Below are positions 12,909-64,000 of a stretch of 64,000 nucleotides of DNA, in pieces. Numbering within the stretch: the first letter of the stretch is position 1; the number at the start of each line of letters is the position of its first letter. Source of the DNA: Candidatus Adlerbacteria bacterium (GTDB taxonomy: Bacteria > Patescibacteriota > Minisyncoccia > Phycocordibacterales > SBAW01); assembly GCA_029288895.1 (NCBI GenBank), contig JARIGK010000004.1:13621-77620 (forward strand), given 5' to 3'. The notes beneath the pieces are model-generated. The model ran no database searches. It was not told the DNA's origin and saw only the letters and a list, made by a program, of their open reading frames with translations. Made by a program: the position numbers and the translations under genes.

Positions 12909-13631
12909 ATGTTCCATACAATTCTCATCAACCCGATCTATAACGCGTTCATCTTTCTTATTGGTGTGGTGCCGGGCGGCGACGTTGGTTTGGCCATCAT
13001 CGCGATGACCGTGGTAATTCGCCTTGTGTTCTACCCCCTCTTTGCATCGAGCATCCGCACGCAAATGGGTATGCAGGCAGCGCAAAGCGAGCTCGATGAG
13101 ATCAATACGAAGTACAAAGACAATGCCGAAGAGCGCGGCCGCCACACCATGGAGTTGTTCAAGAAATATAATGTGCGCCCCTTTAGCGCATTTTTGGCAT
13201 TGCTCGTACAGATCCCGGTGTTTATTGCGCTCTACTACGCCTTTTTCCGCGAAGGGCTGCCGCAGATCGCGACCAGTATCCTCTACCCCTTCGTCCACGC
13301 TCCTGCCGTGGTAAATACACAGTTCTTGGGCTTTTTAGACTTACTGCAACATCACAATATTGTCCTGGCCGTGATTGTGGCGGGGCTCCAGTACCTGGTT
13401 GTGCGCTTTTCGCTTTTCCGTACACAGAAAAAAGCGCCCGCTAAAAAAGATGATGCGGCACGCGCCCAGGCTTTGCAGCAACAATTGATGATGTACTTCC
13501 TCCCGGGGCTTATGGGGGTGGTGTCATACACCGTCCCTGCGGCTGTGGGTATCTATTTTGCAGCGGGCAGCGTTATTTCGCTCTTGCAGGAGTGGTTGAT
13601 CCAGCGCCAAATGGCGGCAAAAACCCTCTAG
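12909..13631 (+). CDS. yidC: membrane protein insertase YidC (short Gram-positive-like form)
   Basis: 240 aa with the conserved YidC/Oxa1 TM core. Canonical rpmH-rnpA-yidC-jag synteny. Confidence 0.85.
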   Translation: MFHTILINPIYNAFIFLIGVVPGGDVGLAIIAMTVVIRLVFYPLFASSIRTQMGMQAAQSELDEINTKYKDNAEERGRHTMELFKKYNVRPFSAFLALLVQIPVFIALYYAFFREGLPQIATSILYPFVHAPAVVNTQFLGFLDLLQHHNIVLAVIVAGLQYLVVRFSLFRTQKKAPAKKDDAARAQALQQQLMMYFLPGLMGVVSYTVPAAVGIYFAAGSVISLLQEWLIQRQMAAKTL

Positions 13632-13640
13632 ATCCCGGCC

Positions 13641-14147
13641 GTGATGGCCGGACAGGTTGGCAGGGTGTCGGGATTGGAGTATTGTGGCTCTATGAGCCAG
13701 GACGCACTTACACAGTTTGTACAAACGCTTTTTTCGTCCATGGGCATACAGCCCTCCTCCCTTGTCGTCTCGAGTGGCCACCGCACGGTGGTCGCGGTAG
13801 CGCTCGATGATGCGTCTGCTTTTTTGAATAACAATGGCGAAGCGCTTCGGGCATTAAACGCGCTTGCCCGCCGCATTGTTGAGAAAGCTCATGGCGAAGA
13901 GGCAGCAAACTTCCTTATCGATATAAACGGCCATCACGAACAGCAGATGGAAGCAGTGCGCGCGAATGCGCGCATGTTGGCGCAGCGCGCCCGCCTCTTT
14001 AAACACGAAGTCGAAATGGAGCCAATGAGCTCGTACGAGCGCTTGGTCGTCCATGAACTGTTTGCAGAAGACCCAGAGATAGAAACGCGATCAGAAGGCG
14101 AAGGAAAATTCCGCCACATTGTGTTGGCCTTTCGCGGCGCAAAGTAA
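13641..14147 (+). CDS. jag: Jag/KhpB R3H-domain RNA-binding protein
   Basis: Jag_N-like N-terminus and a C-terminal R3H motif (SYERLVVHE). Synteny after yidC. Confidence 0.75.
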   Translation: MMAGQVGRVSGLEYCGSMSQDALTQFVQTLFSSMGIQPSSLVVSSGHRTVVAVALDDASAFLNNNGEALRALNALARRIVEKAHGEEAANFLIDINGHHEQQMEAVRANARMLAQRARLFKHEVEMEPMSSYERLVVHELFAEDPEIETRSEGEGKFRHIVLAFRGAK

Positions 14148-14161
14148 CTTTGTTGCCGGGC

Positions 14162-15367
14162 CTACAAACGCACGCCCCACAGTGATTGGTCGCCGCGGGT
14201 AATAAACCAGAGATACTTGCCATCTTGTGACACGCCGAGTTGTTCTATTGGTGCATTTGCGCCACCTTCCCCAGGAAGGGTTAAAACAATACCATCACCA
14301 ATATTAGTTTTAAATAAAACTATACTGTCAGCGGTCTGTACAAGACCTTTATGCCATAAATCAACATAGCCTCCTGTTACATAATCAATTGGGAGGGCGC
14401 AGTAGAGGTCGGTACGAATAGTCGGGCTCCATACGCACTTCTCGGGCAGTGGGTCGTTTGCAAGCGGTGCGTCCTTCCCTGTGGCAATATCGTGCGAATA
14501 GGTTGTTGCAGTGTTGTCGGTATCTTGGGCAGTCTGATACACCACTTTAGAAAATACGCTGTTAGCTAATGCGACGAGCCCGTTTGCAAAGAGCAATGGC
14601 GTTTGTGTGCCTAATTTTGCATCTATCACGAAGGCGGCGCCTGGTACCCCAGCAGCAGACTTACTTTGCAACATAAGTGTTGATGTTGCTGGCCATGAAA
14701 TAAGCACTTGCGAAAGCGGTGATGAAAAGAGTTTCCTTGGATTTGTGCCATCGATATTTGCAGTGTAGCCGTCGCTGCCCGCATTGGTTGTGAGCATATA
14801 CACCACACTTCGTGCGTCGGGCGAGAGTGCGAGTGAGGAAATGTTATTTGGCAAAAACTGTACTCGCAATGGTGCGCCTGTGCTGCTGGTTGTGGCCAAC
14901 GCTAGGTACACGCTCTTGAGCGTGCCGCTGTCCATATACTGCAAGATAGTTGTTGTGCCTGCGTTGCCCCACAGCGCATCCACAACACTTGGGATGGTTG
15001 TATTTGAGACAGGTTTTGACGCAGCACCCGGTACATCAATTGCTTGGTCTAGAATGTGGCCATTGTCTGCCATCACATAGCGCGCAAGCGTTGTTGTTGG
15101 CGAGAATGTTTCTACAAACGTTGCACCCGCAACCGGGCCGTTTGCGATTTTAAATACCTTTCCTTGAGACGAGTTTGGGATTACTCCATTGCCGCCCGTG
15201 TCGTTCCCTGCTGGTGTAACTGATACATTTCCCCCTACCCCAAAGAAGTTTGTAACGGACGGCCCACTCTGCTGGCTTGTAGAGCGGAAAAAGAAGAATG
15301 TAAGTATTCCTGCGATAAAGAGGAACACAACACCCACGCATATGTAGTAGAAAATATTTTTATTCAT
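14162..15367 (-). CDS. hypothetical membrane-anchored protein (N-terminal TM, Ser/Thr/Gly-rich, beta-rich), last gene of the T4SS-like operon
   Basis: Likely start MNKNIFYY followed by one TM helix. ATGA overlap with the upstream gene. Confidence 0.45.
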   Translation of the reverse strand: MNKNIFYYICVGVVFLFIAGILTFFFFRSTSQQSGPSVTNFFGVGGNVSVTPAGNDTGGNGVIPNSSQGKVFKIANGPVAGATFVETFSPTTTLARYVMADNGHILDQAIDVPGAASKPVSNTTIPSVVDALWGNAGTTTILQYMDSGTLKSVYLALATTSSTGAPLRVQFLPNNISSLALSPDARSVVYMLTTNAGSDGYTANIDGTNPRKLFSSPLSQVLISWPATSTLMLQSKSAAGVPGAAFVIDAKLGTQTPLLFANGLVALANSVFSKVVYQTAQDTDNTATTYSHDIATGKDAPLANDPLPEKCVWSPTIRTDLYCALPIDYVTGGYVDLWHKGLVQTADSIVLFKTNIGDGIVLTLPGEGGANAPIEQLGVSQDGKYLWFITRGDQSLWGVRL

Positions 15368-16296
15368 TTGTCTGTGATGCAGCCTTGATTTGGCCCAATC
15401 ATATCGCAATTATACGTGCCAGGATCTTTCCCTTTATCTTGTTTTACGTACTCACTTGCGCATGCGTTCCCACCGTATTTAGTTCTTGATATTATGGTTA
15501 TAAGTGTGCCCCCCTTTGCTTCGCAAGCCGTTTGATTTTTTTGAATCTGTGCGCTTAGATCAATTTGTGCAGGCGGTGGTGAAACGCCAGCAGTAGTTGC
15601 GGATATGACACTGCACGCACCAACCAACTGTGGGTTGAGGGTATTTAAAATAATCCATGATGCGAGCAAAATAATAAGCCCCCATACGGCTGCTTTAATG
15701 CGATCACGTGCGGCAGAGCGCTTATCGACCACCTCTGACACCATATAGGTGACACCTGCGAGGACAAGAAAGAGCACGGCCAACATGGCACCCAAATAGA
15801 TGAAGAATTTGAAAATAAGGTCAATGATTTGGCAGAAATTTGAGCCGCCGGACGTTTGCCCAGGGAACGGTTCAAGCGGTGTGTATGTAAGGCTGTTGGA
15901 TACAATAACGCCCTGGCCCCCTTTTGCGTTAACAATGTGTTGTCCGCTCGCACAACCACTGAGAGGCACTGGTCCTACATATTCCGAGGGGGCTGCTGCA
16001 GAATCGTCTGTCCAACATCCCGCCTGTGTGTTGGGGTTACTTGAAGGAGTAATGTAATTTGTAGATGTGTTCTCAGGAGCGCACTCAGGCTCGCCTGCTT
16101 CTCGAATACACATGACGCCCTGCATATCAGAAGGGCAGCCCGTACCTTTTGAATCTTGAGCTTTGGGCCCAGGTGTCATCACGCCCTGTGCTACTGCAAG
16201 TGTTTTGCTGTAACAGTAGAACGCAGCGTGCGTATGGTGCGGTATCCCAAATACCACAAACATACCTGCCATAATTAGTAATTTTCTATACGTCAT
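15364..16296 (-). CDS. cysteine-rich secreted/membrane protein (signal peptide plus internal TM helix)
   Basis: 310 aa with signal peptide MTYRKLLIMAGMFVVFGIPHHTHA, about 20 Cys, and a central hydrophobic helix FKFFIYLGAMLAVLFLVLAGV. Translationally coupled to its neighbours. Confidence 0.5.
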   Translation of the reverse strand: MTYRKLLIMAGMFVVFGIPHHTHAAFYCYSKTLAVAQGVMTPGPKAQDSKGTGCPSDMQGVMCIREAGEPECAPENTSTNYITPSSNPNTQAGCWTDDSAAAPSEYVGPVPLSGCASGQHIVNAKGGQGVIVSNSLTYTPLEPFPGQTSGGSNFCQIIDLIFKFFIYLGAMLAVLFLVLAGVTYMVSEVVDKRSAARDRIKAAVWGLIILLASWIILNTLNPQLVGACSVISATTAGVSPPPAQIDLSAQIQKNQTACEAKGGTLITIISRTKYGGNACASEYVKQDKGKDPGTYNCDMIGPNQGCITDK

Positions 16297-37826: not shown

Positions 37827-38567
37827 TTATAGAGTCTTCCAGATAAAGCTGTGCATACTTTTGAATAGCTCGGCGATATCCTTATTTTCTATCACTATTG
37901 CGGAAAGGTCGCGCAGGCTCATCAGGGCAACTTTGTCTCCATAAATAAGCACATCAACGTTTGATTTAAACGACTCGGGCAGAGTTTTTGAAAGTTTGCC
38001 GTTGCCCCCGTTCTTCTCGCGGATTTCTTTTATACGCTTTACGTACTTACTTTTTACGAACAGGTCGTAGCTTTTAAATGAATGTTCCCCCATCGTTTTG
38101 TCGAATGCGTCATACTCCGCTTCGCTAAAACTTTCAAAAAACCTATCAGCCGGGAAGATAGAATATCCATCCCCCACCGTCTTAAACAGGTCATCATAGA
38201 TGCGCGCCATCTCTCGCTTCCCTTCGTAAAATACAACATTTGGTTTGTTGGTTGCCTGCCCGCGCAATGTCGACATGGCCTCTACGTTTTTTTCGAACTC
38301 CCCAGTGCGTTTTTTGAAATCGTTCAATATTTCTTTTGGGTCATTTGCCGAATAGAATGTTCTCTTCCCTATCGGGACGCGGATAATAAAATTTTTTACA
38401 AGCAATGCTTCTAAGTGTTCATAACACGTGGCGCGTTTTATTCCTGTAGCGCGGGCGATGTCTGCCACGTCCATACGGCTGTGCCCTAGAAGGCATACAT
38501 ATATAGAAGCGGCCTTCTGCGGCAGCCCCACCCCCTCCAAAACCTCTATAAGTTGAGATTGTTCCAT
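37827..38567 (-). CDS. TrmB-family transcriptional regulator (paralog 1)
   Basis: N-terminal wHTH (ASIYVCLLGHSRMDVADIARATGIKRATCYEHLEAL) and a TrmB-like C-terminal domain. Confidence 0.7.
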   Translation of the reverse strand: MEQSQLIEVLEGVGLPQKAASIYVCLLGHSRMDVADIARATGIKRATCYEHLEALLVKNFIIRVPIGKRTFYSANDPKEILNDFKKRTGEFEKNVEAMSTLRGQATNKPNVVFYEGKREMARIYDDLFKTVGDGYSIFPADRFFESFSEAEYDAFDKTMGEHSFKSYDLFVKSKYVKRIKEIREKNGGNGKLSKTLPESFKSNVDVLIYGDKVALMSLRDLSAIVIENKDIAELFKSMHSFIWKTL

Positions 38568-38747
38568 ACGACCATTCTATAGGTTTTATAAAAAATGTCA
38601 ATAAAAGCGACATATTTTATCTTATTAAAATTAAAATACGTTGCTAAATAAGAGTATTTTAGCTACAAAAATATAATTTTTATACCTAAATCTTCATTTT
38701 GTTAGATACTTAATGCAGTTAGAACATTCAAATATAGGAGAGGTCCC

Positions 38748-39188
38748 ATGATCGAGTATCTCGCTTTCCACCCAGTGCTGGCAGCAATTTTTATCGAAAG
38801 TCTGATAGCGCTTTTCTGTCTAGCTATTACATCCGTATATGCCAAAGAAGGCTTTAAGTCCTGGCTTGGCAATGCGCTTGGGTTTGCAATAATCCCTGGT
38901 ATAGTTCTCCAACTTTTCCTTGTTCTTTGGTTTGGTCCGAATGGCCCAGCTGCTGATATAGAGCGTGCACGGCAACGGGCACAAACACATGGCAAAGTGC
39001 TTTGGGAGCTTGTGTATGAGCAAAAATATAGCTCATGTCTGGATGTTGCTTTGAGCTTCGAGAGCCCAGGAAAGGTATATTGGCACTCGCCTTTCCCTGA
39101 AGCAGAGCGGTGGAAAATATTGGTAATGTCGGACGAGCAAGCAGATGCTACGTTCAAGTGCCTAAAGCCTTTTTTCGAAAAGAAATAA
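38748..39188 (+). CDS. hypothetical membrane protein (146 aa)
   Basis: SD aggagagg. Three hydrophobic helices in the N-terminal half. Confidence 0.55.
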   Translation: MIEYLAFHPVLAAIFIESLIALFCLAITSVYAKEGFKSWLGNALGFAIIPGIVLQLFLVLWFGPNGPAADIERARQRAQTHGKVLWELVYEQKYSSCLDVALSFESPGKVYWHSPFPEAERWKILVMSDEQADATFKCLKPFFEKK

Positions 39189-46654: not shown

Positions 46655-47347
46655 CTACCCTTCCTTAGTTTTAAGAACAAAGGCAATAAAATCCGGATGT
46701 GCTTGGGTATCGAGTACCTCGCTTTCCGCAATGTCCAGAATCTGGAGTCCGTGCTTCTTAAATAGCTGTATGTAGTACGACAGCGGGCGGTGGTAGTCAG
46801 TAAATTCGATGCCGTTTTCATGCACAATCTTTTTATACTTGAATTCTTTGTCGTACTTTGGGTTCCACACATGTGAACGGATGCGTTTTGTTACAATGCC
46901 AACAGTTAAATAGTCGCTGCATGGGTTGCAAAGACTCACAATAATGGGCGCGCCATCTTTTGCGAGAATTTTTAAATTCTCAAGCATCACATCCTGGTCT
47001 TTTTTCTTGAGTATGCAGAGTACAAGGTTAGATGTTACAAGATCGAACTTTCCGGCAAGGGTCGGAAGCTTTTTTACAAATTCTGTGTTGGTATAAAACC
47101 TAGGTTTTGTATATTGAGATTTTGCTTGTGCCACCATTCCATCGGCTTCGTCGAAGGCCTCAGTCGCATATCCTTTCTGTGATACTGCGTCTGCAAACTC
47201 TCCCCATCCGCAGCCATAGTCGAATGCTGTTCCAGACTTTGGGGCGTATTTTTTAATAAGCGAAAATAGTTTTTCATTCAAAACGCGGTTTTTTGCGTCT
47301 TGGATTTTCGGTGCCTTTTTAGATAATGTATTCCATTCGTTTGCCAT
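46655..47347 (-). CDS. class I SAM-dependent methyltransferase (standalone paralog of the C-terminal domain of the upstream fusion protein)
   Basis: Motif I FDYGCGWGEF. About 50% identity to residues about 570-800 of the 804-aa neighbour. Confidence 0.75.
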   Translation of the reverse strand: MANEWNTLSKKAPKIQDAKNRVLNEKLFSLIKKYAPKSGTAFDYGCGWGEFADAVSQKGYATEAFDEADGMVAQAKSQYTKPRFYTNTEFVKKLPTLAGKFDLVTSNLVLCILKKKDQDVMLENLKILAKDGAPIIVSLCNPCSDYLTVGIVTKRIRSHVWNPKYDKEFKYKKIVHENGIEFTDYHRPLSYYIQLFKKHGLQILDIAESEVLDTQAHPDFIAFVLKTKEG

Positions 47348-47351
47348 ATAG

Positions 47352-49766
47352 TTATTTTTTGCGGAGCACAAAGTAGATAAAGTCAGGGAAGAGTTGTGTG
47401 CCCAAGGTGTCGCTTTCAGCAATGTCTACAATCTCGAGACCATGTTTCTTGAAGAGTTCGACATAATATTCAAGCGGGCGATGATAGTCTGTAAACTCAA
47501 GGCCGTTTTCATGCACAATTTTAGTATGCTGGAATTCTTTTTCGTACGATGCGTTCGCCGGAAGTATACGATGCGTTACGATGCTGTCGCGCATGTCGTC
47601 AAAGGCCGGGTGGCAAAAACTTAGTAGCAGCGTGCCATTATCATTGAGCAAGCGCTTCATATTTTCTATCAACACCCCGTGCTCTTCTTTTTTGGTAATA
47701 CAGAGCCAAAGGTTCGAGTAGACCATGTCGAACTTATGCTCAAGTAACGGAAGTGTTTTGTAGAATTCTTCTTTTGTAAGGAAAGTCGGCTTTGTAAATT
47801 TCTTTTTTGCAGAAGCAAGCAGACGCTCTGATTCGTTAATTGCAGTCACAGCGTAGCCTTTGTCTGCAAGGATGTTTGCATGTTCGCCCCACTCGCAGTA
47901 GTAATCGAATATTTTCCCGCCTTTAGAAACATATGTGCGCACGAGTTTTGTAAATATTCCATCGAATACAAGGCCTTTTGCCTTTTGAATTTTCTTTGTC
48001 TGTGCCGCAATTGTTGACCACTCATTGGCGATAGCTTCCATGCGCGCCTCACGACTTGTCATATGTGTTGGTTTTTCAACGCGGAAGCACCCAACGTATA
48101 GCACGTCGATACCAGTACGCAGGAAGGTGTTTAGTGCGTCGCGCGGAGTCTCTGGCACCGATTCGTTGTCATTAAGTGATGTGTTTAACACAATTGGAAC
48201 ACCAGTTTCTTTAAAGAAAGCTGAGATAAGTGCGTGATAGCGCCCGTTATCTTCTTTGCGTACTGTTTGGATGCGCGCACTACCATCAAAATGTGTCCCT
48301 GAAGGCATTTTATCTGGATGCAACACGTCAGCATTCAGTATCATGTACGGTGCAGGCACTGAAATGTCGAACCACTTTGATGCTTCTTCCGCGAGGACGC
48401 TTGGCGCAAATGGGCGGAAATGTTCGCGATGTTTAACTTTGTGATTCAGGATGTCTTTCATCTCCGGATTGCGCGGGTCTGCAACAATGCTGCGATTGCC
48501 CAATGCGCGCGGGCCCATTTCGCTACGGCCCTGAAACCATCCAACTACTTTGCCCTCTGCAATATCATGGGCCGCTGCCGTTGTCAGTGTTGAGAGATCA
48601 AGTTTTTTATGTGTGATCATGGGTTCATTCGAAAGCGCATCGAGTATTTCCGCTTCGCTATACTCCTTGCCTTGGTAGACGGACATCTCTTTACGGACTG
48701 CATGGGCGCTATCGAATACGTTCAGTGCCCAGAATGCATCGCCCAAACATTGACCGCTGTCCCCCGCTGCCGGCTGGATGTAAATGTTTTCAATGCCAGC
48801 GTGGTCGAGCAATGCACGGTTAGACACTGCGTTGAGTCCTACGCCGCCCGCGATGCAGAGATTTTTTATGCCAGTTTTCTCTACGAGGTGTTTTACTTTG
48901 TGTATGAGCGCGCGGTCTAATTCACGTTGTATGAGCCACGCTACATCTTCTATGTCCTCATTTATTTCTTCAGTTGGTTTGCGCGCAGATATATTTATGC
49001 CGTGTTCAGCAAGCCACCGCTCAATAACTTTAGGAGAACCTTCGCGTGTGCGGTCGCTGTCGGGCACTAAACATGTAACTTTACCTTCTGGCAAAAGCTC
49101 AAACACCCGCACGTCTTTAAAACGATTGCGTTTTGAGCCATATGCAGAAAGGCCCATCAACTTACCTGCATATTTGTAGCCTGGAAATCCGCAGAAATAT
49201 GTAAAGTAGCGATACACGCCACCAAATCCGTTTTCCTGCGGACCTATTTCCTCACGTTCAAGCAGATCTAATTCTTTTCCATTGCCTAAAAAGTAACTGC
49301 TGTGCTCGAACTGATTTTCCCAATAGCGGTTTTGATTTTTTGTTCCTGACTTAAAACTATTTCCAAGCATATTGCCATCGCCGTCGAGAACCATAACAAT
49401 CGCTTTTTCAAATGGTGATGGCCAAAATGCGCTATATGCATGCGAAAGATGGTGCCCGCACACTCGTATTTTTGAAAGCGGCACGCTAAACCCGCGTTTC
49501 TCGAGTTGTTTTTGAACATCCTGTTCGCGTGCTTTGATATCGAGACATGAGCTTGCGACAAAGAGATCTATGTCATCTATAGAAAGATTGTTGTTTTCAA
49601 GTATGTAATTGATGCTCTGCACAAAGCCGGCATCGTATTGCTTACGAGTAAGACGCTCTTCATTGATAAGCATCTTTACTTCCCCATCTACTACCAAACA
49701 CGCGCCGCCGTTGTCGAGCGGAAGCCCGTATGAGTTATGTTCTAGATTAAATCCCAGTATTTTCAT
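47352..49766 (-). CDS. NodU/CmcH-family carbamoyltransferase fused to a C-terminal class I SAM methyltransferase domain (804 aa)
   Basis: Carbam_trans N/C domains with CGHHLSHAYSAF and the Kae1/YrdC-like fold. C-terminal FDYYCEWGEH methyltransferase domain. Confidence 0.8.
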   Translation of the reverse strand: MKILGFNLEHNSYGLPLDNGGACLVVDGEVKMLINEERLTRKQYDAGFVQSINYILENNNLSIDDIDLFVASSCLDIKAREQDVQKQLEKRGFSVPLSKIRVCGHHLSHAYSAFWPSPFEKAIVMVLDGDGNMLGNSFKSGTKNQNRYWENQFEHSSYFLGNGKELDLLEREEIGPQENGFGGVYRYFTYFCGFPGYKYAGKLMGLSAYGSKRNRFKDVRVFELLPEGKVTCLVPDSDRTREGSPKVIERWLAEHGINISARKPTEEINEDIEDVAWLIQRELDRALIHKVKHLVEKTGIKNLCIAGGVGLNAVSNRALLDHAGIENIYIQPAAGDSGQCLGDAFWALNVFDSAHAVRKEMSVYQGKEYSEAEILDALSNEPMITHKKLDLSTLTTAAAHDIAEGKVVGWFQGRSEMGPRALGNRSIVADPRNPEMKDILNHKVKHREHFRPFAPSVLAEEASKWFDISVPAPYMILNADVLHPDKMPSGTHFDGSARIQTVRKEDNGRYHALISAFFKETGVPIVLNTSLNDNESVPETPRDALNTFLRTGIDVLYVGCFRVEKPTHMTSREARMEAIANEWSTIAAQTKKIQKAKGLVFDGIFTKLVRTYVSKGGKIFDYYCEWGEHANILADKGYAVTAINESERLLASAKKKFTKPTFLTKEEFYKTLPLLEHKFDMVYSNLWLCITKKEEHGVLIENMKRLLNDNGTLLLSFCHPAFDDMRDSIVTHRILPANASYEKEFQHTKIVHENGLEFTDYHRPLEYYVELFKKHGLEIVDIAESDTLGTQLFPDFIYFVLRKK

Positions 49767-53740: not shown

Positions 53741-53812
53741 GCTCCTGTGGTGAAATGGATATCACGGCTGGCTTCGAACCAGCTGTTCCAGGTTCGAGTC
53801 CTGGCGGGAGCA
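53741..53812 (+). tRNA. tRNA-Arg (anticodon TCG)
   Basis: Manual cloverleaf: acceptor GCTCCTG/CGGGAGC (one G-U), D arm GTGA-AATGGATA-TCAC, anticodon stem GCTGG/CCAGC with loop CTTCGAA, T arm CCAGG-TTCGAGT-CCTGG. Confidence 0.85.
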
Positions 53813-53876
53813 CACGTTCGACCAGTTTTGCTCGCTCAGTGTGTAGAGCTGTGCTATAGTCTTCATTGTTCAGAAC

Positions 53877-53947
53877 GCGGATATGGTTTAGTGGTAGAAC
53901 ACCTCCTTGCCAAGGAGGAGACGGGAGTTCGATTCTCCCTATCCGCA
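53877..53947 (+). tRNA. tRNA-Gly (anticodon GCC)
   Basis: Acceptor GCGGATA/TATCCGC, anticodon stem CCTCC/GGAGG with loop TTGCCAA, T arm GGGAG-TTCGATT-CTCCC. Confidence 0.85.
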
Positions 53948-54089
53948 CCGAGGTTTCTCAAAGCCCCCTTATAAGACACATTTGTGGATAAAAGTGGGGA
54001 GAAGTGTATAAAAGACGTCTTTTAAGGCTTTTGTACGTTTCATATGTAACGTTTCCCTCACAAAGGTTCACGTGTAACACCTGTGGGGT

Positions 54090-54473
54090 ATGGAAAAGAC
54101 TAAAAAGCGTAGAATAGGTGACATTGGCGAAGAGGTAGCTTCGAAATATCTAGTAAAGAAGGGCTATTCTATAGTCGGGAGGAACTATCTCAAACCTTGG
54201 GGTGAGTTGGATATCATAGCCACGAAGGGTGGGAAACTACACTTTGTAGAGGTAAAGACAGTTTCACGTGAATCGGGTAGGGGGCAAAAAGGCCGCCCCG
54301 AGGACAATATGCATGAATATAAGTTGAAGAGGCTGCACCGAGCTATCCAGACCTACCTGCTCGAGAAGAAGATGGGGAGTGGGGTAGAGTGGCAGCTCGA
54401 TCTGGCTTGTGTTTATTTGGATTTTTCGACTAAGCGCGCTACAGTTGAGCTCTTGGAGAATATTATCCTCTGA
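54090..54473 (+). CDS. yraN: YraN-family (UPF0102) endonuclease
   Basis: IGDIGEEVASKYL...GELDIIA...EVKT motif pattern of the YraN family. Confidence 0.75.
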   Translation: MEKTKKRRIGDIGEEVASKYLVKKGYSIVGRNYLKPWGELDIIATKGGKLHFVEVKTVSRESGRGQKGRPEDNMHEYKLKRLHRAIQTYLLEKKMGSGVEWQLDLACVYLDFSTKRATVELLENIIL

Positions 54474-54498
54474 GATGTCGTAAAGGACATAAAAGACA

Positions 54499-54572
54499 CG
54501 GGACGTAGTATAGTGGTAGTACACTTGCTTTGGGAGCATGTAGTCCGAGTTCGATTCTCGGCGTCCCGACCA
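54499..54572 (+). tRNA. tRNA-Pro (anticodon TGG), CCA encoded
   Basis: Acceptor CGGGACG/CGTCCCG, anticodon loop TTTGGGA (U33, G37), T arm CCGAG-TTCGATT-CTCGG. One T-T mismatch in the anticodon stem. Confidence 0.75.
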
Positions 54573-57174: not shown

Positions 57175-57245
57175 GCGGGATTAGTTTAGTGGTAGAACAT
57201 CAGTTTTCCAAACTGAGAGTGCCGGTCCGATTCCGGCATCCCGCA
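57175..57245 (+). tRNA. tRNA-Gly (anticodon TCC)
   Basis: Acceptor GCGGGAT/ATCCCGC, anticodon stem TCAGT/ACTGA with loop TTTCCAA, T arm GCCGG-TCCGATT-CCGGC. The low-GC island begins immediately downstream. Confidence 0.85.
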
Positions 57246-57250
57246 CTTAT

Positions 57251-58087
57251 ATGACATCTGTCCCCGAAGAAATAAAAAAAGTGGTGGGGAACACAGAAGG
57301 GCCTGTCAGCATGATTTTGGCAGGCGTACACGGTGACGAATTGTGCGGCGTCTCTGCCCTGCAAGAGATTTTTAACTCTCTGGAGATAGAGCGGGGGACG
57401 GTGTTATATGGGTTTGGCAACCCCCGAGCCATTGCCACGGGGAAGCGCTTCGTCGAAAAAAATCTTAATAGGATGTTTAAACCCGATGCAGATCTAACTG
57501 ATGAAGAAAAACAAAGTTATGATTATGACCGTGCACAGTATCTAAAAAAATATTTCGATACAGCGGAGGCACTGCTCGATATTCATTCGAACCCCTGGCG
57601 CGAAGAGAAAACATTCGTCATATGTGAAAAGAATGGATTTGAACTAGCAGGATCTTTGCCGACAGACATTGTTGTATCGGGTTTTGATGCGGCGGAGCCG
57701 GGCGGCACTGACTACTATATGAATAGAGGGGGGAAGATTGGTATTTGTTTTGAAGCGGGCTATTTGGATGACGCGTTTTCGAGAGCCACAGCAAAAGTTG
57801 CAATAGAAAATTTTTTAGAAGCACGGGGGCATACCACACGCGCGATTTTGCCTCGTGCACAGAAAAAACTGAACGTATTTAAAAAAGGCCTCTCGCGCAG
57901 CGATGCGTTTGTTCTTACTCGACCATTTGCCAATTTTGAGGCGCTTAAAGAGGGGGAATTGATCGGAACTGATGGAGCTGAAGAAGTGCGAGCGCCGAGA
58001 GCGTGCCACATCCTATTTGCCCGCAATGGAAAGTTCAAAGGGGATGAAATTTTCCTCCTGTGCGATGAGACGAAGCCTGAGTGGTAG
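57251..58087 (+). CDS. succinylglutamate desuccinylase/aspartoacylase (AstE/AspA) family zinc deacylase
   Basis: ILAGVHGDE zinc-binding motif and overall AstE_AspA layout. Confidence 0.7.
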   Translation: MTSVPEEIKKVVGNTEGPVSMILAGVHGDELCGVSALQEIFNSLEIERGTVLYGFGNPRAIATGKRFVEKNLNRMFKPDADLTDEEKQSYDYDRAQYLKKYFDTAEALLDIHSNPWREEKTFVICEKNGFELAGSLPTDIVVSGFDAAEPGGTDYYMNRGGKIGICFEAGYLDDAFSRATAKVAIENFLEARGHTTRAILPRAQKKLNVFKKGLSRSDAFVLTRPFANFEALKEGELIGTDGAEEVRAPRACHILFARNGKFKGDEIFLLCDETKPEW

Positions 58088-58097
58088 TATTCCTAGT

Positions 58098-58865
58098 ATG
58101 GGGACCGAATCGAAATTTCTCACGAATCTAAAGAAGCTGGCGCTCTCTACCAAAGAGAGTATTGATTTAAGCGATTTTACTAACTATACAGAGAAAAATA
58201 TACATATAACAAAAGAACCGTTTCCTCATTTTATTGCAGAAAATTTCTTTAAACCGGAGATCTATGATGCCTTGTGTAAAGAATTTAATGCCGTTATGGA
58301 GCGCGGCTTATCCAATTCCAAAGGAGGAGATTTTAATAAATTCCACGCGTTTGATATTGACTATGATGGGTATCTCTATGTGCCTGCCCCGACGTTAGCG
58401 CGCGACAACCCGCTTCGGCTGTTTTACAGCCTCGAATGGAATATGTTTTTTTCAAAATTATTCCGACAATTTACATCGTTCGAGACATCGTTTGTGCTTC
58501 ACCATCACCCGCCAGGCGACAGAACGGGTTTTGTTCATCACGACTTTTCGGACAAACGATTCCACGAACGCTCGGTCCTTCTTAATGGAGTAATTGCGCC
58601 CGAAATAAAAACTGGCGCTGCAGCGCGCAGACGAGTAATTTCACTCCTTATATATATTAATAATCCTGTGTGGCAGGAAGGTGACGGAGGAGAGACGGCT
58701 ATCTATGCTGCAGATAAAACTATAGTGATAAAGAAAATACCTCCAATCAATAATACGCTGTTTGCGTTTCAGACATCGCCTGTATCTTTCCATGCCTTTC
58801 AGGCGAACAAAAAGGACCGCAACTGTCTTGTGCAATGGTTCCATATGCCGCCAGAATTACTCTAA
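58098..58865 (+). CDS. hypothetical protein, possibly 2OG-Fe(II) oxygenase/cupin-like
   Basis: VHHD (HxD) followed by a distal His. Weak assignment. Start at MGTESKF inside track ORF 57972..58865. Confidence 0.35.
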   Translation: MGTESKFLTNLKKLALSTKESIDLSDFTNYTEKNIHITKEPFPHFIAENFFKPEIYDALCKEFNAVMERGLSNSKGGDFNKFHAFDIDYDGYLYVPAPTLARDNPLRLFYSLEWNMFFSKLFRQFTSFETSFVLHHHPPGDRTGFVHHDFSDKRFHERSVLLNGVIAPEIKTGAAARRRVISLLIYINNPVWQEGDGGETAIYAADKTIVIKKIPPINNTLFAFQTSPVSFHAFQANKKDRNCLVQWFHMPPELL

Positions 58866-58869
58866 ACAT

Positions 58870-59466
58870 ATGCCGAAGAAAAAACTTTTATTTGTTGGAG
58901 CAGGCGGAGAGCTGGCATCAAAAGTTCTACCGCTATTGTCGAAGTCATATGACATCGTTGGTATTGCAGGTAGGCGGGATGATCTGCGCCCATATTGTGT
59001 TGAAATGTATAAAGGTAATTTACTTACCGGCTACCAACAGCTTTTTGAAACAGCATTTCGCGCACATCAATTCGATATAATTATTTGGAACCCTGTGCGT
59101 TATTTTTTTACTTCTTTGATGCAGAGTACGCGCGAAAGTTTACATACAGAATTTGATATTGCAGTTGCGCTCGCTGTCGAGTGTCTAAAAACAGCTCGCA
59201 AAGAGCAAAATTTTTCTGGCACATTTGTATTAGTTTCGAGCCTGTCCGCATTTGGGTACAGAAAAGATCTTGCCACGTATTCGATTGTAAAAAATGCTCA
59301 AGTTAGATTCGCCAAAGTGCTGGCCGAGGAATTGAAAGGTGCTGTAGTGGTAAAAATAGTTGCCCCTGGTTCTGTGCGGGCAATACCTACGGAAAGTCTG
59401 GGGAAAGCCTTTATTTCAAGCCTAGAAAATGAATATCCAGAGCGGGTCTTGTATACCGTTCAATAG
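58870..59466 (+). CDS. short-chain dehydrogenase/reductase (SDR)-like NAD(P)-binding protein
   Basis: Rossmann GAGGELASK near the N-terminus. Start inside track ORF 58762..59466. Confidence 0.55.
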   Translation: MPKKKLLFVGAGGELASKVLPLLSKSYDIVGIAGRRDDLRPYCVEMYKGNLLTGYQQLFETAFRAHQFDIIIWNPVRYFFTSLMQSTRESLHTEFDIAVALAVECLKTARKEQNFSGTFVLVSSLSAFGYRKDLATYSIVKNAQVRFAKVLAEELKGAVVVKIVAPGSVRAIPTESLGKAFISSLENEYPERVLYTVQ

Positions 59467-59557
59467 ACTTGCTTTTTCTTATAAAAATGTTATTATAAAT
59501 TACCCTAGAAATCTCTAGGATATCTCATCAACAGACAGAGAAGAGGGAGTTCTTTCC

Positions 59558-60016
59558 ATGCGTACCATTATTCTCGCTGGCTCCGCCGCCGTCGCGATGT
59601 CCCTGAGCGTATCCACCGCGTTTGCGGCAAGCCCCAACCAGGCGATCATCGACAAGAGCTGCTGGGGTTTTTACGATGCTGCGCTGGGTGGCAACGGAGT
59701 CAAGCTGGAACGGCCCGAAGCGGCGTTCAAGTTCTCGGTCAAGGCGGACGGCTCGTTCGTCTTCACTGCGAAGGCTGGTGCTGCCGCGCGCAAGAACTGG
59801 AATGGCGCCTCGGGCAACGACTACCTCACCCAGAAGGAGGCGCAGTACCAGCCGCTTCCTGACGGCGGCCTGCAATTTGCCAATCAGTCGGCGCATTCCT
59901 ACTACACGCTGACTCCTGCGGCTTCCCAGTCCGGCGACGCTCCTGGTTCGGTGCGTTTCTCGGTGCTGTACAAGCACAACCAGGGTACAGCCAACGGTGA
60001 AGCGTTCTGTAAGTAA
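59558..60016 (+). CDS. secreted hypothetical protein (152 aa), GC-rich relative to flanking DNA
   Basis: Signal peptide MRTIILAGSAAVAMSLSVSTAFAA. SD agaagaggga. Terminator hairpin gggcccg...cgggcc at about 60040-60075. Confidence 0.55.
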   Translation: MRTIILAGSAAVAMSLSVSTAFAASPNQAIIDKSCWGFYDAALGGNGVKLERPEAAFKFSVKADGSFVFTAKAGAAARKNWNGASGNDYLTQKEAQYQPLPDGGLQFANQSAHSYYTLTPAASQSGDAPGSVRFSVLYKHNQGTANGEAFCK

Positions 60017-60120
60017 CAGGTAGCGATGCCAGGGCGAGTGTTTGGGCCCGTATAGCGATATGCGGGCCTTTTCTTTTGGGAAAGCACTTTGTGCTTGTAT
60101 GATTACGGGGCTAACTTCAT

Positions 60121-61662
60121 ATGGAACCCGTTACACAATTTTCTCAAACTTTCAGAAAGGATAGATTTGGTTTTGAGAAAAATTACACTCTTTCTGAAGC
60201 TGTTGAGCTTTTCATAAAACCATGTGGTCGTTTTAAATCACCCCTCTCTTGGAAAGATAAGCTGGAAATATTCATAGCGAAATTCGTGAGCCGTTCGCGA
60301 ATTTTTAATACTATAGTGGCTCTCCCTGTGTACGATATTTCCCCTAACTGGCAAATACTTTTAAATTATCTCGCCAAAGAAGGTGTTATTGTAAGACCAA
60401 CATTCCATCCATTTTTGCAGCATAATGACTACCCTCCGTCCCATACGGTATATCTTGTGTCGCATCTTGATCAGAAGGTAACTGATGGGAAATTGGAGCG
60501 CGATCAAATCACTGCTTTTGGTAATGGCCCAAGATTTGAAGATGCGTATGGGAAAGCGGTTGGTGAAATGCTCGAGCGCTATACGCTCGCGCTCTTTCGA
60601 ATAAAAGATTTATTGTTTTGTTCGCGTGTGGAACTTGTACAAAAGGGGGAACTAGTCCTCGATATTAGTGCTAAGCCACAATTTCTGCCCTGGCAGAAAG
60701 AGCATTTTAAAGAGCTGGGCGCAACAGATCGCACGACGTTGTCGTGGGTTGAGGGCAGAGAACTTATTTCTAATAGGCGCGCCTACGTTCCGGCGCAGCT
60801 TATATTCTGGAGTCGAACTGTATTGGGTGCGAAGTCGGATATGGTTGTTCTGCAGCAACCTACAAGTAATGGGCAAGCAGGTGGGTTTACTTTCGAAGAG
60901 AGTGTTCTTTCAGCGATATATGAAAATGTGGAGAGAGACGCATTCCTCATATATTGGCTCAACACCCTTTCTCCGAAACGTATTGCGCTTGATAGTATTC
61001 AAAATCCCGATGTTGTTTCTGTAATTGCCTCGGCACAGCGGTATGGTCTGGATTTGTATTTTCTTGATACAACGAGTGATATCGAGATACCAGCTTGTAT
61101 ATGTGTTGTCATGGACAGGCGAGGCCCAGAACCACGGTTGGCGATGGGGGGCGGTGCCGGATTTGATATTCAAAAAAATCTCCTATCGAGCGCAAATGAA
61201 GCAATTAGCGTGGCGCAAAACAATTATGCGTTTGATGTGCCTAAGAACTACAAACCATTTTTAGATACAACAATTACAAAAAAAGAGCGTATGGGCTTAT
61301 GGCGCGGCTCTACAATGATTGAGCATTTTAATTTTTTCATTGGAGGGGAAGAGGTACCTCTTGAAGAAAGCCGTTTTGCAAACCTGGCGCGCACGTTTCC
61401 TTCAAAAAAAGAAGAATATTCATTTACACGTGAACTTTTTAAACACTTAGGAGAAGGGTACGAATTATATTGCTATCAAGCAAAACATGCAGTGCTTTCC
61501 AAATTGGGGTATGTGGTGACAAAAGTTGTCATACCTAAACTTGTACCTCTGTATTTGGCAGAGTATATGGCGACACTTGATGCGGAACGTTTGTATGAAG
61601 TCCCAAAAAAACTTGGGTTTGAAAACACCAAGCTCAATCCATGGCCCCATCCATTTCCATAG
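60121..61662 (+). CDS. YcaO-domain cyclodehydratase (TOMM/azoline-forming family)
   Basis: YcaO ATP-binding signatures: AVGEMLERY and PTSNGQAGGFTFEESVLSAIYENVERDAF (SNGxAxGxTxEEA...E..ERD). 513 aa with a roughly 140-aa N-terminal extension. Confidence 0.85.
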   Translation: MEPVTQFSQTFRKDRFGFEKNYTLSEAVELFIKPCGRFKSPLSWKDKLEIFIAKFVSRSRIFNTIVALPVYDISPNWQILLNYLAKEGVIVRPTFHPFLQHNDYPPSHTVYLVSHLDQKVTDGKLERDQITAFGNGPRFEDAYGKAVGEMLERYTLALFRIKDLLFCSRVELVQKGELVLDISAKPQFLPWQKEHFKELGATDRTTLSWVEGRELISNRRAYVPAQLIFWSRTVLGAKSDMVVLQQPTSNGQAGGFTFEESVLSAIYENVERDAFLIYWLNTLSPKRIALDSIQNPDVVSVIASAQRYGLDLYFLDTTSDIEIPACICVVMDRRGPEPRLAMGGGAGFDIQKNLLSSANEAISVAQNNYAFDVPKNYKPFLDTTITKKERMGLWRGSTMIEHFNFFIGGEEVPLEESRFANLARTFPSKKEEYSFTRELFKHLGEGYELYCYQAKHAVLSKLGYVVTKVVIPKLVPLYLAEYMATLDAERLYEVPKKLGFENTKLNPWPHPFP

Positions 61663-61665
61663 ACT

Positions 61666-62400
61666 ATGTACATAGATTTTTCAAAGCTCTTCCATAGAGC
61701 ATCAAAAGATAGCCGAGATGGTGGTAGGGTGCATATACCAAGAGATTCCGCCCAGTGGCCCGATGCCTGGAAGACAACTTTCTATAAAGCATATAAGTCG
61801 CTTCCATCTATTATTCTCTCTCATTCGGACTTGCGAGCAGATCTTTTCTCTACTATCGTTTCTCGAACCTCAAGGAGAGGGCCATACAGCGAGACGCTCT
61901 CCAAAGACGAGCTTGCAACAATCTTGCTTTATTCATGCGGAAAGAAAAAAAATAACGATGGAACGAATCGTGCGCAACCGTCAGGTGGAGGTCGATACCC
62001 AATAGAAGCGTATGTGTTGATGTTTCGTTCATTGCCAGACGTTCCTGCAGGCATCTATCACTACAATGTAGAGAATCATACACTTGAGCGTTTAGCAGCT
62101 AAAGAATTTACGAAAGAAGATATTGCAAGATTATTTTCATACGAGTGGATACAGGATAGTTCTGCGGCAATTGTTTTAACCTCTGCTTTTGAGCGCACAA
62201 AAATGAAATACGGCCAGCGCGGCTATCGGTATGCAATGCTTGAAGCGGGGCATATCGGCCAAAATATTTGCCTTATTTCTCAGGCTTTGAATGTTCAGTG
62301 TTGTCCAATGGGCGGAAGCTTTGATGAAGGGCTAGAAAACATACTTGGTATAGACGGCGAGGATGAAAGTCTCGTCTACACACTTGTTTTGGGGAAATAA
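61666..62400 (+). CDS. SagB-type FMN-dependent dehydrogenase (nitroreductase superfamily; azoline oxidase)
   Basis: PSGGGRYPIE (compare PSAGGLYP) and C-terminal EAGHIGQNICL...CCPMGGSFDE. ATG 3 nt after the YcaO stop. Confidence 0.8.
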   Translation: MYIDFSKLFHRASKDSRDGGRVHIPRDSAQWPDAWKTTFYKAYKSLPSIILSHSDLRADLFSTIVSRTSRRGPYSETLSKDELATILLYSCGKKKNNDGTNRAQPSGGGRYPIEAYVLMFRSLPDVPAGIYHYNVENHTLERLAAKEFTKEDIARLFSYEWIQDSSAAIVLTSAFERTKMKYGQRGYRYAMLEAGHIGQNICLISQALNVQCCPMGGSFDEGLENILGIDGEDESLVYTLVLGK

Positions 62401-62437
62401 TATAGCTCCAACATAAACTCCTGGTATACTTGGAGGT

Positions 62438-62779
62438 ATGAGGAAAGTCCTCCGAACTGTCATACGCACTGCGGCACTCATTGCGTTCGCAGTATTTGTA
62501 TTTTCTACAGGATTGGTAAATAAACTTGGGGGGTCAGCTGTAGAAAATCAAAAAAATAAACAAAAAGATCAGGATGATTTGCTCGCTTCCTTTACTGGTC
62601 CAGAGAAAGCATATGCGGATGCGCCCGCGGCTTGCAGTGGAAGTGATGCTTGTGGTGGGCAACCTCCGGATGCGTGCGGAGATGCCTGCGGCGCCGGCGC
62701 TTCGTCTTCCGGTGCGTCTGATGCTGGGGGCGGTCCTGGCCCAGGCCCCGACCCAGGCCCCGACCCAGGCCCTCATTGA
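62438..62779 (+). CDS. small ORF with Cys/Ser/Gly/Pro-rich C-terminus, candidate RiPP precursor (or secreted low-complexity protein)
   Basis: 113 aa with N-terminal hydrophobic segment and C-terminal AACSGSDACGGQPPDACGDACGAGASSSGASDAGGGPGPGPDPGPDPGPH (6 Cys, many Ser). Directly downstream of YcaO-SagB. Own terminator at 62812..62841. Confidence 0.4.
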   Translation: MRKVLRTVIRTAALIAFAVFVFSTGLVNKLGGSAVENQKNKQKDQDDLLASFTGPEKAYADAPAACSGSDACGGQPPDACGDACGAGASSSGASDAGGGPGPGPDPGPDPGPH

Positions 62780-62811
62780 GTAGAAAATAGTATAGAAAGA
62801 AAAACGCCCCG

Positions 62812-62841
62812 TTGTATTGACGGGGCGTTTCGCACTCGAAT
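62812..62841. terminator. bidirectional rho-independent terminator
   Basis: aaaacgccccgt-tgtattg-acggggcgttt. Confidence 0.6.
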
Positions 62842-62858
62842 CTTCAGGGGTAGAGAAT

Positions 62859-63314
62859 TTAAACCCCGCCCGTGCAGATGAACGTGACAGCGACAGGTTC
62901 ATCGACGGTGTACTTGCCTCGCACCTCCCAGATTGGCTGGGGACGCGTGGCAGCCTTTAGATTGTAGCCGACGTTGTTCCACGACAGGATGTCGAAGTGG
63001 AACATGCCGTCCTTCTGCTGCTGCAGGGTAATGAAACCCCACTTCCTCGCCGTCGATTCGCCGTTCATCCGGCCCAGCACTTTGGCCGAATTGTCGGTGT
63101 CGAAGAGTAGCTTGAGCTGGATCTTTGGGAGCCAGCTGGCATATCCCTTAGGCTCACCGAGGCAAGTGCGCACCAAGCCTGTTTCCTTGCTGGGAAAGTC
63201 GGTGATGGCGGCGTTTGCTTGCAGCAACGACTTGCTTTGCCCAAACGCGGTCTGAGCGCCGAACGACAGTAGTGTGAGGGCCAAAAACGCCCCCAAGTTT
63301 GCGAAGAACTTCAT
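62859..63314 (-). CDS. secreted hypothetical protein (signal peptide), GC-rich
   Basis: MKFFANLGAFLALTLLSFGAQTAFGQ with SD aaggaggg. In frame within track ORF 62859..63374. Confidence 0.5.
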   Translation of the reverse strand: MKFFANLGAFLALTLLSFGAQTAFGQSKSLLQANAAITDFPSKETGLVRTCLGEPKGYASWLPKIQLKLLFDTDNSAKVLGRMNGESTARKWGFITLQQQKDGMFHFDILSWNNVGYNLKAATRPQPIWEVRGKYTVDEPVAVTFICTGGV

Positions 63315-63464
63315 CTGACCCTCCTTGTTGCTTGGAGAAATGCCTCCAAAATGCGTTCGTATCAATTGTACCACTATTTGAACAGTTTTGTCAAGTCATC
63401 CAGATTCGGCCTGTGGAAAGAGAGTTGGGGTAAAAAGAAGGGTGGTATTATTGAGCAAGAATAA

Positions 63465-64000
63465 TATGAAAATTCGTACTACACTCCTTTTTATTTGCGT
63501 ATTGTTGTTGTGTTGTGTGGCTGGCGCTGGCGGATATTATTACTTCAAAATATATCTGCCCGCGCGAGAACACACATTAGTTATGAATTCGATACAAGAA
63601 TCTCACCCCGCACGCAACGCGCTTTATGCCGGTGACAATGCCACCGCGATCAGCACTTTGCGCAGTTTAATTGCTAAAGCTCCTACAAAAGAGGAGCGGG
63701 CACGTCTTCAACATCTCTTAATTCTAGGTCTTTTCAATATAGACAACGAAGCAGACACTTCAGAAGCTGTTTCACTTTCATACACGCTTATAAACGACTA
63801 TTCAGTGCCTGCATGGATACGCGCATTGACTCTCAACCACCTCGCACTCTTTATGCATGGCGGCGGCGTAAATTTTTATAAGAAATATTTTACACAACCT
63901 CCACTTGATGCATTTATAAATACTTCCGGTAATGATTCGACAAGGGCGTGGACCGCATACTACAAAATCCTTGCACTTTCCGACGAGACGTACCCGACGT
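63465..64000 (+). CDS. membrane-anchored hypothetical protein (3'-truncated by window end)
   Basis: MKIRTTLLFICVLLLCCVAGAGGYYYF... with an N-terminal TM. Runs to the window edge. Confidence 0.4.

Follow-up and report, generated by a model that had tools for sequence, protein, structure and literature searches.

A candidate azole-forming RiPP locus with a putative membrane-anchored precursor in a Candidatus Adlerbacteria-like genome

Among the described peptide-modification systems the closest to the locus treated here are the linear azole-containing peptides and thiazole/oxazole-modified microcins (LAP/TOMM), including microcin B17 (McbBCD), streptolysin S (SagBCD) and phazolicin. Our locus occupies positions 57175-64000 of a 64,000-nt stretch of DNA (hereafter the window) from a Parcubacteria genome of the Candidate Phyla Radiation (CPR), which is Candidatus Adlerbacteria-like; the gene calls and coordinates of this region were re-checked. 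It encodes a YcaO protein, a SagB-type dehydrogenase and a small peptide, the candidate precursor of a peptide that is ribosomally synthesized and then post-translationally modified (RiPP). The locus shares with LAP/TOMM systems a YcaO carrying the PxPxP motif, an FMN dehydrogenase of the SagB/McbC type, and an adjacent precursor with a Gly/Ser/Cys-rich core that is reminiscent of McbA. It differs from them in having no E1-like C protein or RiPP recognition element (RRE), no dedicated protease and no ABC exporter. Furthermore, its leader is basic and carries a putative transmembrane (TM) signal-anchor rather than being soluble, its core is strongly anionic and partly Pro-rich, and its steady partners are membrane-anchored tetratricopeptide repeat (TPR) proteins and a prolyl-hydroxylase-like 2-oxoglutarate (2OG) oxygenase. 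Judged by its predicted enzymes the cluster would be LAP/TOMM-like in function; the absent C protein/RRE is a membership feature of that class, and the YcaO falls short of the cutoff of the SagD hidden Markov model (HMM).

LAP clusters with YcaO and a nitroreductase have been reported from 93 CPR genomes, 51 belonging to Parcubacteria (Sharrar et al. 2020, mBio, PMC7298704), and the view taken in the initial annotation, that such a cluster is unusual in a reduced genome, was overstated. According to the available text of that paper, YcaO lies beside the nitroreductase with a small adjacent precursor in Parcubacteria and Microgenomates, as it does here, and the window locus is very probably one of the population reported. 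The Microgenomates example described in that text differs in having a peptidase, and resembles a locus from our own comparison (L060). The available text (PMC7298704) makes no mention of a signal-anchor leader, an A-x-A-D motif or TPR partners, of links to a 2OG oxygenase and a short-chain dehydrogenase/reductase (SDR), or of an N-terminal YcaO domain. Nor did the literature that we searched contain a description of a signal-anchor leader with an A-x-A-D boundary, TPR membrane partners, a link to a prolyl-hydroxylase-like 2OG/SDR pair or a clade-specific N-terminal YcaO domain. The membrane-anchored precursor and its partner proteins look like an undescribed variant of the CPR YcaO/nitroreductase clusters already published; the locus owes its value to these variant features, not to the occurrence of such a cluster.

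Stand-alone azoline-forming YcaOs, such as that of bottromycin biosynthesis, act without an E1-like/Ocin-ThiF-like partner, as is proposed here. Bottromycin precursors carry a follower peptide and, to our knowledge, the bottromycin system has no SagB-type oxidase partner of this kind. A parallel for export is offered by the bufferins, which are RiPPs with Sec signal peptides (PMC11626156). Their precursors have an N-terminal export signal, no dedicated exporter is present, and Cys heterocycles are made while the peptide is still in the cytoplasm, with export by the general pathway following (PMC11626156), a route which for our locus is a proposal. The enzymes are different (MNIO and DUF2063 in bufferins, YcaO and SagB here), and bufferins have canonical signal peptides, whereas the putative cleavage site here lies 13-37 residues past the hydrophobic segment.

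The YcaO and SagB-type enzymes

The gene at 60121-61662 (+ strand) specifies a protein of 513 amino acids (aa) that matches Pfam PF02624 with 153.4 bits (gathering score 25.7; residues 134-474) and the SagD-family model TIGR03604 with 191.5 bits, residues 134-513 aligning with model positions 1-377 of 377. Other YcaO models are far weaker (McrA-thioamidation, 60 bits; generic YcaO, 54 bits). Residues E149, E152, R153, E268, R272 and D273 are invariant in the clade and fall inside the Pfam ATP/Mg-binding domain match. The cyclodehydratase domain (60520-61662) ends in NPWPHPFP; among 31 homologs P509 and H510 are invariant, and N506, P507, P511, F512 and P513 nearly so. The PHPFP is a PxPxP motif, which at the C-terminus goes with azoline-forming YcaOs (PMC12338566). 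The nearest solved sequences are the cyanobactin/muscoride heterocyclases MusD, TruD and LynD, and with an AlphaFold2 model (pLDDT 90) the top Foldseek matches were MusD, LynD, MJ1094 and McbD, the matches being to YcaO structures only, to E=5e-22. Because of the HMM matches, the solved-structure relatives, the model and the PxPxP C-terminus, the protein is classified as an azoline-forming-type cyclodehydratase. Its closest named relative (55% identity) is encoded in a Candidatus Adlerbacteria locus, L001, to which we refer repeatedly below.

A gap of 3 nt separates the YcaO stop codon from the next gene (61666-62400, + strand; 244 aa), which by its match to TIGR03605 (127.9 bits; cutoff 78.4) is assigned to the SagB-type FMN-dependent azoline dehydrogenases. 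Its PDB relatives, 3eo7, the BmdC oxidase, CyaGox and McbC, are azoline oxidases, and its KYGQRGYRY aligns with KYGAAGYFY of BmdC, the KY dipeptide being matched. A scan of one genome per species yielded 24 loci carrying a YcaO of this clade, of which 21 also have SagB. The initial annotation had named both products from the sequence, as a YcaO and a tightly coupled SagB-type partner forming a pair of the azol(in)e-forming type, and all of this stands.

The N-terminal extension of YcaO (approximately 133 aa; 60121-60519, + strand) is a clade-specific helical domain which may bind the leader. It had been suggested that this extension substitutes for an E1-like/RRE partner; an RRE-like fold was not found in the domain, and the suggestion in that form is not borne out.

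The candidate precursor, its tailoring enzymes and membrane partners

The peptide gene (62438-62779, + strand) begins 37 nt after the SagB gene and specifies 113 aa. The leader part (residues 1-60; 62438-62617) has four K/R, a hydrophobic TM helix at approximately residues 11-27 and a charged linker ending in EKAYA, and is followed, at the junction EKAYA|DAP, by a core of 53 aa plus the stop codon (62618-62779): DAPAACSGSDACGGQPPDACGDACGAGASSSGASDAGGGPGPGPDPGPDPGPH. This core contains 4 Cys, 6 Ser, 14 Gly, 10 Pro and 7 Asp with zero Lys/Arg. The third-position G+C content (GC3) of the gene, 39.5%, is in line with YcaO and SagB. From comparison with homologs, which begin at the equivalent codon, the predicted start seems right; a GGAGG stands just 1 nt before the ATG (62432-62440), unusually close for a Shine-Dalgarno sequence.

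A homology search with the 113-aa peptide returned zero matches, itself included, and none of the curated families covers these peptides. Because the search returned none, family membership was set from the open reading frames (ORFs) of the relatives' loci. Peptides of the family adjoin YcaO/SagB in 16 of the 24 Parcubacteria loci, upstream or downstream and on either strand. They are built on one plan, namely a basic N-terminus, a TM helix, a linker and an invariant [A/V]-x-A-D directly before an anionic hypervariable core, other cores including VCCPCRFVVEGCDCCSAEGC... and ...CGGCGGGCASGGGSGGSGC. The motif is kept in approximately 30 peptides, comprising all those beside YcaO/SagB and about ten found later; these have 1-5 K/R in the n-region and a hydrophobic segment of at least 17 aa, and the [A/V]-x-A lies 13-37 residues beyond it, which is atypical for a Sec signal peptide. 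The same architecture is found in a more distant locus (L059). In L001 two copies of the peptide gene are 100% identical over 257 nt, of which 75 nt lie upstream and the rest covers the leader as far as AYADT, and then diverge abruptly, a break that suggests the leader/core modularity typical of RiPP precursors. The small ORF downstream of SagB, to which the initial annotation had drawn attention as Cys/Ser-rich and which is also rich in Gly and Pro, belongs to a family with conserved leader and hypervariable core that recurs beside YcaO/SagB, and on these grounds it is a credible precursor.

Several arrangements at related loci deserve mention. The L001 direct repeat (12250-12506 and 15918-16174; intergenic plus leader-coding sequence) brackets a 3.7-kb segment holding a core (core A), a gene of the approximately 370-aa family described below, a DUF6817/metallo-beta-lactamase gene and a secreted protein. 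This segment is missing from the sibling contig L004, a difference that looks like gain or loss of a cassette via recombination at the leader. In L027 (5484-6293) an ORF of 269 aa joins the same leader, a VRADIP motif and a Gly/Ser/Cys core, in frame, to a domain of approximately 170 aa; the fused domain starts CFRGRTLVAV... and resembles a Hint/intein-type N-terminus. In L025 (Kaiserbacteria) two divergent YcaO-SagB pairs (13018-15227, - strand; 10001-12215, + strand) flank one very Cys/Ser-rich peptide and its approximately 370-aa partner.

Upstream of YcaO lies a 2OG-Fe(II) oxygenase gene (58098-58865, + strand; 255 aa), whose start was taken from an identical database protein (P0064). The product matches Pfam PF13640 (2OG-FeII_Oxy_3) with 40.9 bits (gathering score 27), and H147, D149, H232 and R241, the HxD...H iron triad and the 2OG-binding Arg, are invariant in 35 homologs. 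In the PDB the family profile finds protein prolyl hydroxylases only (OGFOD1 best, then P4H and PHD2), a likeness confined to the C-terminal half of the domain. The fold signature, the triad and the Arg are shared with these hydroxylases; the proposed substrate here, a small Pro/Gly/Asp-rich peptide, is not. With 31.9 bits against a cutoff of 150, the protein is not a member of the NCBIfam cyclophane 2OG maturase family YhhC, and among the PADLOC defence models there was just a generic 2OG match. The short SDR-like oxidoreductase (58870-59466, + strand; 198 aa) starts 4 nt past the 2OG gene; its matches to Pfam adh_short and adh_short_C2 are barely over the gathering scores.

Searches from the 2OG family, a metagenome scan among them, showed that its homologs in other Parcubacteria contigs adjoin the pair formed by the peptide and the approximately 370-aa protein, usually with an SDR directly downstream (at least 10 other loci). 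In most of these 2OG-peptide loci the available flank contains neither YcaO nor SagB. The median Pro fraction of the cores is 0.19 with a 2OG gene versus 0.036 without (Mann-Whitney p=1e-5), and the Cys+Ser+Thr fraction is 0.30 with YcaO versus 0.20 without (p=0.013), correlations that ignore phylogenetic relatedness and rest on short flanks. The window core shows both kinds of sequence, being Pro-rich and Cys/Ser-containing. These associations make it likely that the 2OG enzyme tailors the Pro-rich part of the peptide.

The first gene of the cluster encodes an AstE/AspA-family zinc deacylase-like protein (57251-58087, + strand; 278 aa; Pfam PF24827, 1e-21) that scores far below the cutoffs of all NCBIfam equivalogs. 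Its homologs occur only in the closest Adlerbacteria loci, and the gene probably lies outside the conserved peptide system. A role as tailoring enzyme or leader peptidase was considered and rejected, as far as a conserved component is meant. Of the tailoring candidates proposed upstream in the initial annotation, then, the 2OG enzyme and the SDR are found again alongside this peptide family in other Parcubacteria, while AstE is unlinked to it outside the closest relatives.

The steadiest partner in neighbour clustering is a protein of approximately 370 aa that combines a TM helix at the N-terminus with a helical TPR-like domain (TPR signal at profile positions 45-101), which adjoins the peptide in 14 of the 24 reference-genome loci. 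The 5' part of its gene is at 63466-64000 (+ strand; start MKIRTTLLF...), where it leaves the window edge, and is recognized by the family HMM (1e-33) and by 47-50% identity to L001 12602-13720. In the window a minus-strand gene for a GC-rich secreted protein separates it from the peptide. A second recurrent membrane-anchored family in the relatives is a TM+TPR protein of approximately 275 aa.

Proposed pathway and alternative explanations

On balance we think it probable that this is a vertically inherited RiPP locus in which YcaO/SagB azole formation and 2OG/SDR modification of Pro would act on a peptide with a membrane-anchored leader, exported by Sec and handled by TPR proteins. The YcaO would cyclodehydrate Cys/Ser of the anionic Gly/Ser/Cys/Pro-rich core in the cytoplasm, using ATP, and SagB would oxidise the azolines to azoles. 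The prolyl-hydroxylase-like 2OG enzyme and its SDR partner would modify the Pro-rich tail of the same peptide. With its basic N-terminus and TM helix the leader could double as a signal-anchor, the general secretion machinery moving the modified C-terminal part across the membrane, where cleavage would probably follow at the invariant [A/V]-x-A|D, a site in keeping with signal peptidase I and its -3/-1 rule. Such cleavage would account for the missing dedicated protease and ABC exporter. The membrane-anchored TPR-like protein of approximately 370 aa and, in the relatives, the TPR protein of approximately 275 aa would bind or handle the exported peptide. Substrate recognition would proceed without an E1-like/RRE partner, for which the most promising candidate substitute is YcaO's clade-specific N-terminal domain. 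The role of the product could be antagonism, host contact or metal binding.

No E1-like/Ocin-ThiF-like protein was found in the window region or in neighbourhood clustering of the 24 loci, and phmmer and jackhmmer searches with the E1-like halves of three fused C-D proteins, which are of limited sensitivity, gave no match. Neighbourhood clustering likewise found no M16/C39 protease or ABC exporter in any locus of the peptide system. The initial annotation had noted that no exporter or E1-like gene is visible in the region, which is correct, and had supposed that they may lie beyond the 64-kb edge; relatives with 10-kb flanks lack both too, which speaks against this. By analogy with the Sec-dependent bufferins, housekeeping secretion and signal peptidase may replace the dedicated protease and exporter. 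The classical layout is seen instead in a more distant clade whose YcaO is short (448 aa): its precursor is soluble, of 63 aa, and is accompanied by an M16 peptidase and an EamA transporter. Given this contrast, and since A-x-A-D is kept whatever the tailoring enzyme, the signal-anchor leader and the motif probably serve a shared function in export, cleavage or partner binding.

A number of observations weigh against this pathway. Although aligned end-to-end, YcaO scores 191.5 bits against a TIGR03604 trusted cutoff of 219.25. No RRE was found that would account for recognition of the leader. The A-x-A|D is 13-37 residues past the TM helix, far beyond a normal signal-peptide c-region, which makes it uncertain that signal peptidase I cleaves there. 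The pair of peptide and approximately 370-aa protein often occurs with no YcaO in the available flanks (L030, L031, L038, L040 and L046-L049), which suggests that azole formation is an optional decoration of a broader system; a few YcaO-adjacent cores are devoid of any Cys (L013, L026). Finally, in the window the 2OG-SDR and YcaO-SagB-peptide genes are separate transcription units with a foreign-looking gene in between, and the correlations of core composition are subject to the limits given above.

The spacing of the motif enters also into the best surviving alternative, in which the chemistry is the same and the peptide is never released: it would stay TM-anchored, displaying its modified anionic tail on the surface together with the TPR proteins, for example for host attachment. 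The co-occurrence of two membrane-anchored TPR families with the peptide fits such display, as does the fusion in L027 of leader and core to a larger Hint-like domain. On the other hand, the strict -3/-1 pattern of small residues in the approximately 30 peptides has the look of a cleavage site, and the motif stands exactly at the conserved/variable boundary of the peptide; we regard retention at the surface as unlikely, if not negligibly so.

Less probable again, and in our judgement distinctly unlikely, is that YcaO/SagB, and perhaps the OGFOD1-like 2OG enzyme too, modify a housekeeping protein such as uS12, the peptide being an unrelated secreted or surface neighbour. A cluster conserved and vertically inherited in reduced genomes would suit a housekeeping target, as would the lack of a detectable RRE, the occurrence of the peptide and approximately 370-aa pair apart from YcaO in several loci, and the fact that the best PDB match of the 2OG profile, OGFOD1, is a uS12 prolyl hydroxylase. 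Against this, 16 of the 24 loci place the peptide beside YcaO/SagB, in differing orientations, these peptides have the conserved leader and hypervariable core typical of RiPPs, core composition follows which enzyme is present, and the SagB-type partner and PxPxP point to azole chemistry on Cys/Ser-rich peptides.

Non-azoline chemistry of YcaO on the peptide (thioamide or amidine) is very improbable: the score under the SagD-family trusted cutoff, the weaker 60-bit match to the McrA-thioamidation model and a rhodanese gene in some related loci are outweighed by the lack of TfuA, the PxPxP C-terminus, the SagD family as by far the best, end-to-end HMM, and a SagB-type dehydrogenase that is coupled across 3 nt and present in 21 of the 24 loci.

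Inheritance, layout and biological meaning

The initial annotation had read the cluster as a horizontally acquired genomic island integrated at tRNA-Gly(TCC) and bearing foreign TOMM genes. Conservation of the gene order in relatives, set beforehand as the outcome that refutes this reading, is what was found. The order common to the window and L001 comprises, on the left, tRNA-Arg, tRNA-Gly(GCC), a small gene, tRNA-Pro, an S-adenosylmethionine methyltransferase gene, a small gene and a trypsin-like protease gene (- strand) and, on the right, tRNA-Gly(TCC), AstE, 2OG, SDR, the secreted protein, YcaO, SagB, the peptide and the membrane protein of approximately 370 aa. The synteny thus takes in four tRNAs and both flanks. 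The flanks have diverged about as much as the cluster, identities to L001 being 52-73% in both (methyltransferase 73%, trypsin-like protease 52%, AstE 56%, 2OG 65%, SagB 60%). In L001 the tRNA-Gly(TCC) is 1 nt upstream of the AstE homolog, and loci L001-L003 and L005, all of Adlerbacteria, carry the cluster at the same site. At 53741-54572 of the window, approximately 3 kb upstream, are tRNA-Arg(TCG), tRNA-Gly(GCC), a YraN-like gene and tRNA-Pro(TGG), an order that is kept in the Adlerbacteria relative.

The search for an attR direct repeat found no copy of the tRNA 3' end downstream; the sole repeat touching the tRNA end is 17 nt at 82%, inside the SDR gene, which is chance-level, and there is no integrase among the ORFs of 57251-64000. 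Every taxon-named locus among the 24 is from Patescibacteria/CPR, mostly from Parcubacteria/Paceibacterota lineages. Because the synteny includes the flanks at 55% YcaO identity and the YcaO clade is confined to Patescibacteria among the named hits, the candidate RiPP locus is, to judge from gene order and distribution, vertically inherited and lineage-typical, and not recently imported.

Base composition and the proximity of the tRNA are what favour an island. The G+C content of YcaO is 42.5%, of SagB 43.5%, of 2OG 41.8%, of SDR 42.0% and of AstE 47.2%, and the GC3 of YcaO, SagB, 2OG and SDR is 35-42%, as compared with 50.7 +/- 4.3% GC and 54 +/- 9% GC3 for 49 large ORFs of the window. The cluster genes are approximately 8 GC points, or 1.9 standard deviations, below the window mean, a modest dip that confirms the low G+C content described in the initial annotation only in part; several other window genes are equally low and two GC-rich genes interrupt the stretch. 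In L001 the G+C content of the cluster equals that of the backbone, and the low value is peculiar to the window genome. The dip at 58-62 kb does not stand alone in the window, since two other 1-kb stretches, 38001-39000 and 47001-48000, match the YcaO region in AT-richness (42% GC). The tRNA-Gly(TCC) was located with ARAGORN at 57175-57246 (+ strand; Rfam 70.4 bits) directly before the cluster, as had been claimed; the gap to the first gene at 57251 is 4-5 nt and not 6. It serves as a landmark only and not as an integration site. With the reading already contradicted by the synteny, the missing attR and integrase, and the G+C content of the relative, a recent island is highly implausible.

The YcaO operon is bounded by a terminator-like hairpin (60044-60069) and a promoter-like site (60076-60103, + strand) ahead of it, and by a hairpin terminator (62801-62831) past the peptide gene. 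The latter separates the peptide gene from the minus-strand gene that converges on it; 7 of the 12 bp of its stem are GC pairs, and its T-run is on the minus strand. The promoter-like site has 9/12 consensus matches, which is weak evidence, the count of such sites in the region being not above shuffled expectation. An Rfam scan of the window revealed the four tRNAs and nothing else.

The two GC-rich genes are at 59558-60016 (+ strand; 61% GC, GC3 75%), which specifies a small secreted protein with a signal peptide and separates the two operons, and at 62859-63374 (- strand; 56% GC, GC3 73%), likewise for a small secreted protein, which is inserted between the peptide and its usual neighbour of approximately 370 aa and has a promoter-like site with 11/12 matches (63394-63365, - strand). 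Neither product has a family match in Pfam or NCBIfam. A homolog of the former is at the same position in L001 and L006, and is GC-rich too (57% GC, GC3 69%) in a 46%-GC Adlerbacteria genome. These two signal-peptide genes look compositionally more foreign than the YcaO genes.

Additional neighbours recur beside the peptide system in the relatives. They include a fusion of approximately 550 aa between a phosphoribosyltransferase-like domain and a PQQ-type beta-propeller, and an AMMECR1 fusion of approximately 645 aa; loci with these and other extra neighbours are L007, L009-L011, L013, L017, L023, L024, L031 and L059. Rhodanese, thioredoxin-like and DUF6817/metallo-beta-lactamase genes, and in L059 an Asp/Arg-hydroxylase gene, were also seen at these loci; none is in the window.

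CPR bacteria have tiny genomes with few recognisable secondary-metabolite genes, and a conserved, vertically inherited peptide-modification locus in such a genome therefore likely matters for life on or with hosts. To RiPP enzymology it presents an azoline-forming-type YcaO that has no RRE/E1 partner but does have a clade-specific N-terminal domain, a signal-anchor-like leader whose signal-peptidase-like site would tie export and leader removal to the housekeeping machinery, and an apparent mix-and-match tailoring of one peptide family by azoles and prolyl hydroxylation. More tentatively, and as a possibility that we hold short of probable, Parcubacteria may possess a lineage-wide system of modular exported RiPPs, in which a signal-anchor leader with an invariant A-x-A|D site would precede anionic cores bearing varying combinations of azoles, made by SagB and an RRE-less YcaO with a new N-terminal recognition domain, and of hydroxyprolines, made by a P4H-like 2OG enzyme and its SDR, and in which dedicated membrane-anchored TPR proteins would handle or display the peptides. 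If this is true, the modular RiPPs would serve these episymbiotic bacteria, at the cell surface or after secretion, in attaching to hosts, in antagonism or in capturing metals.

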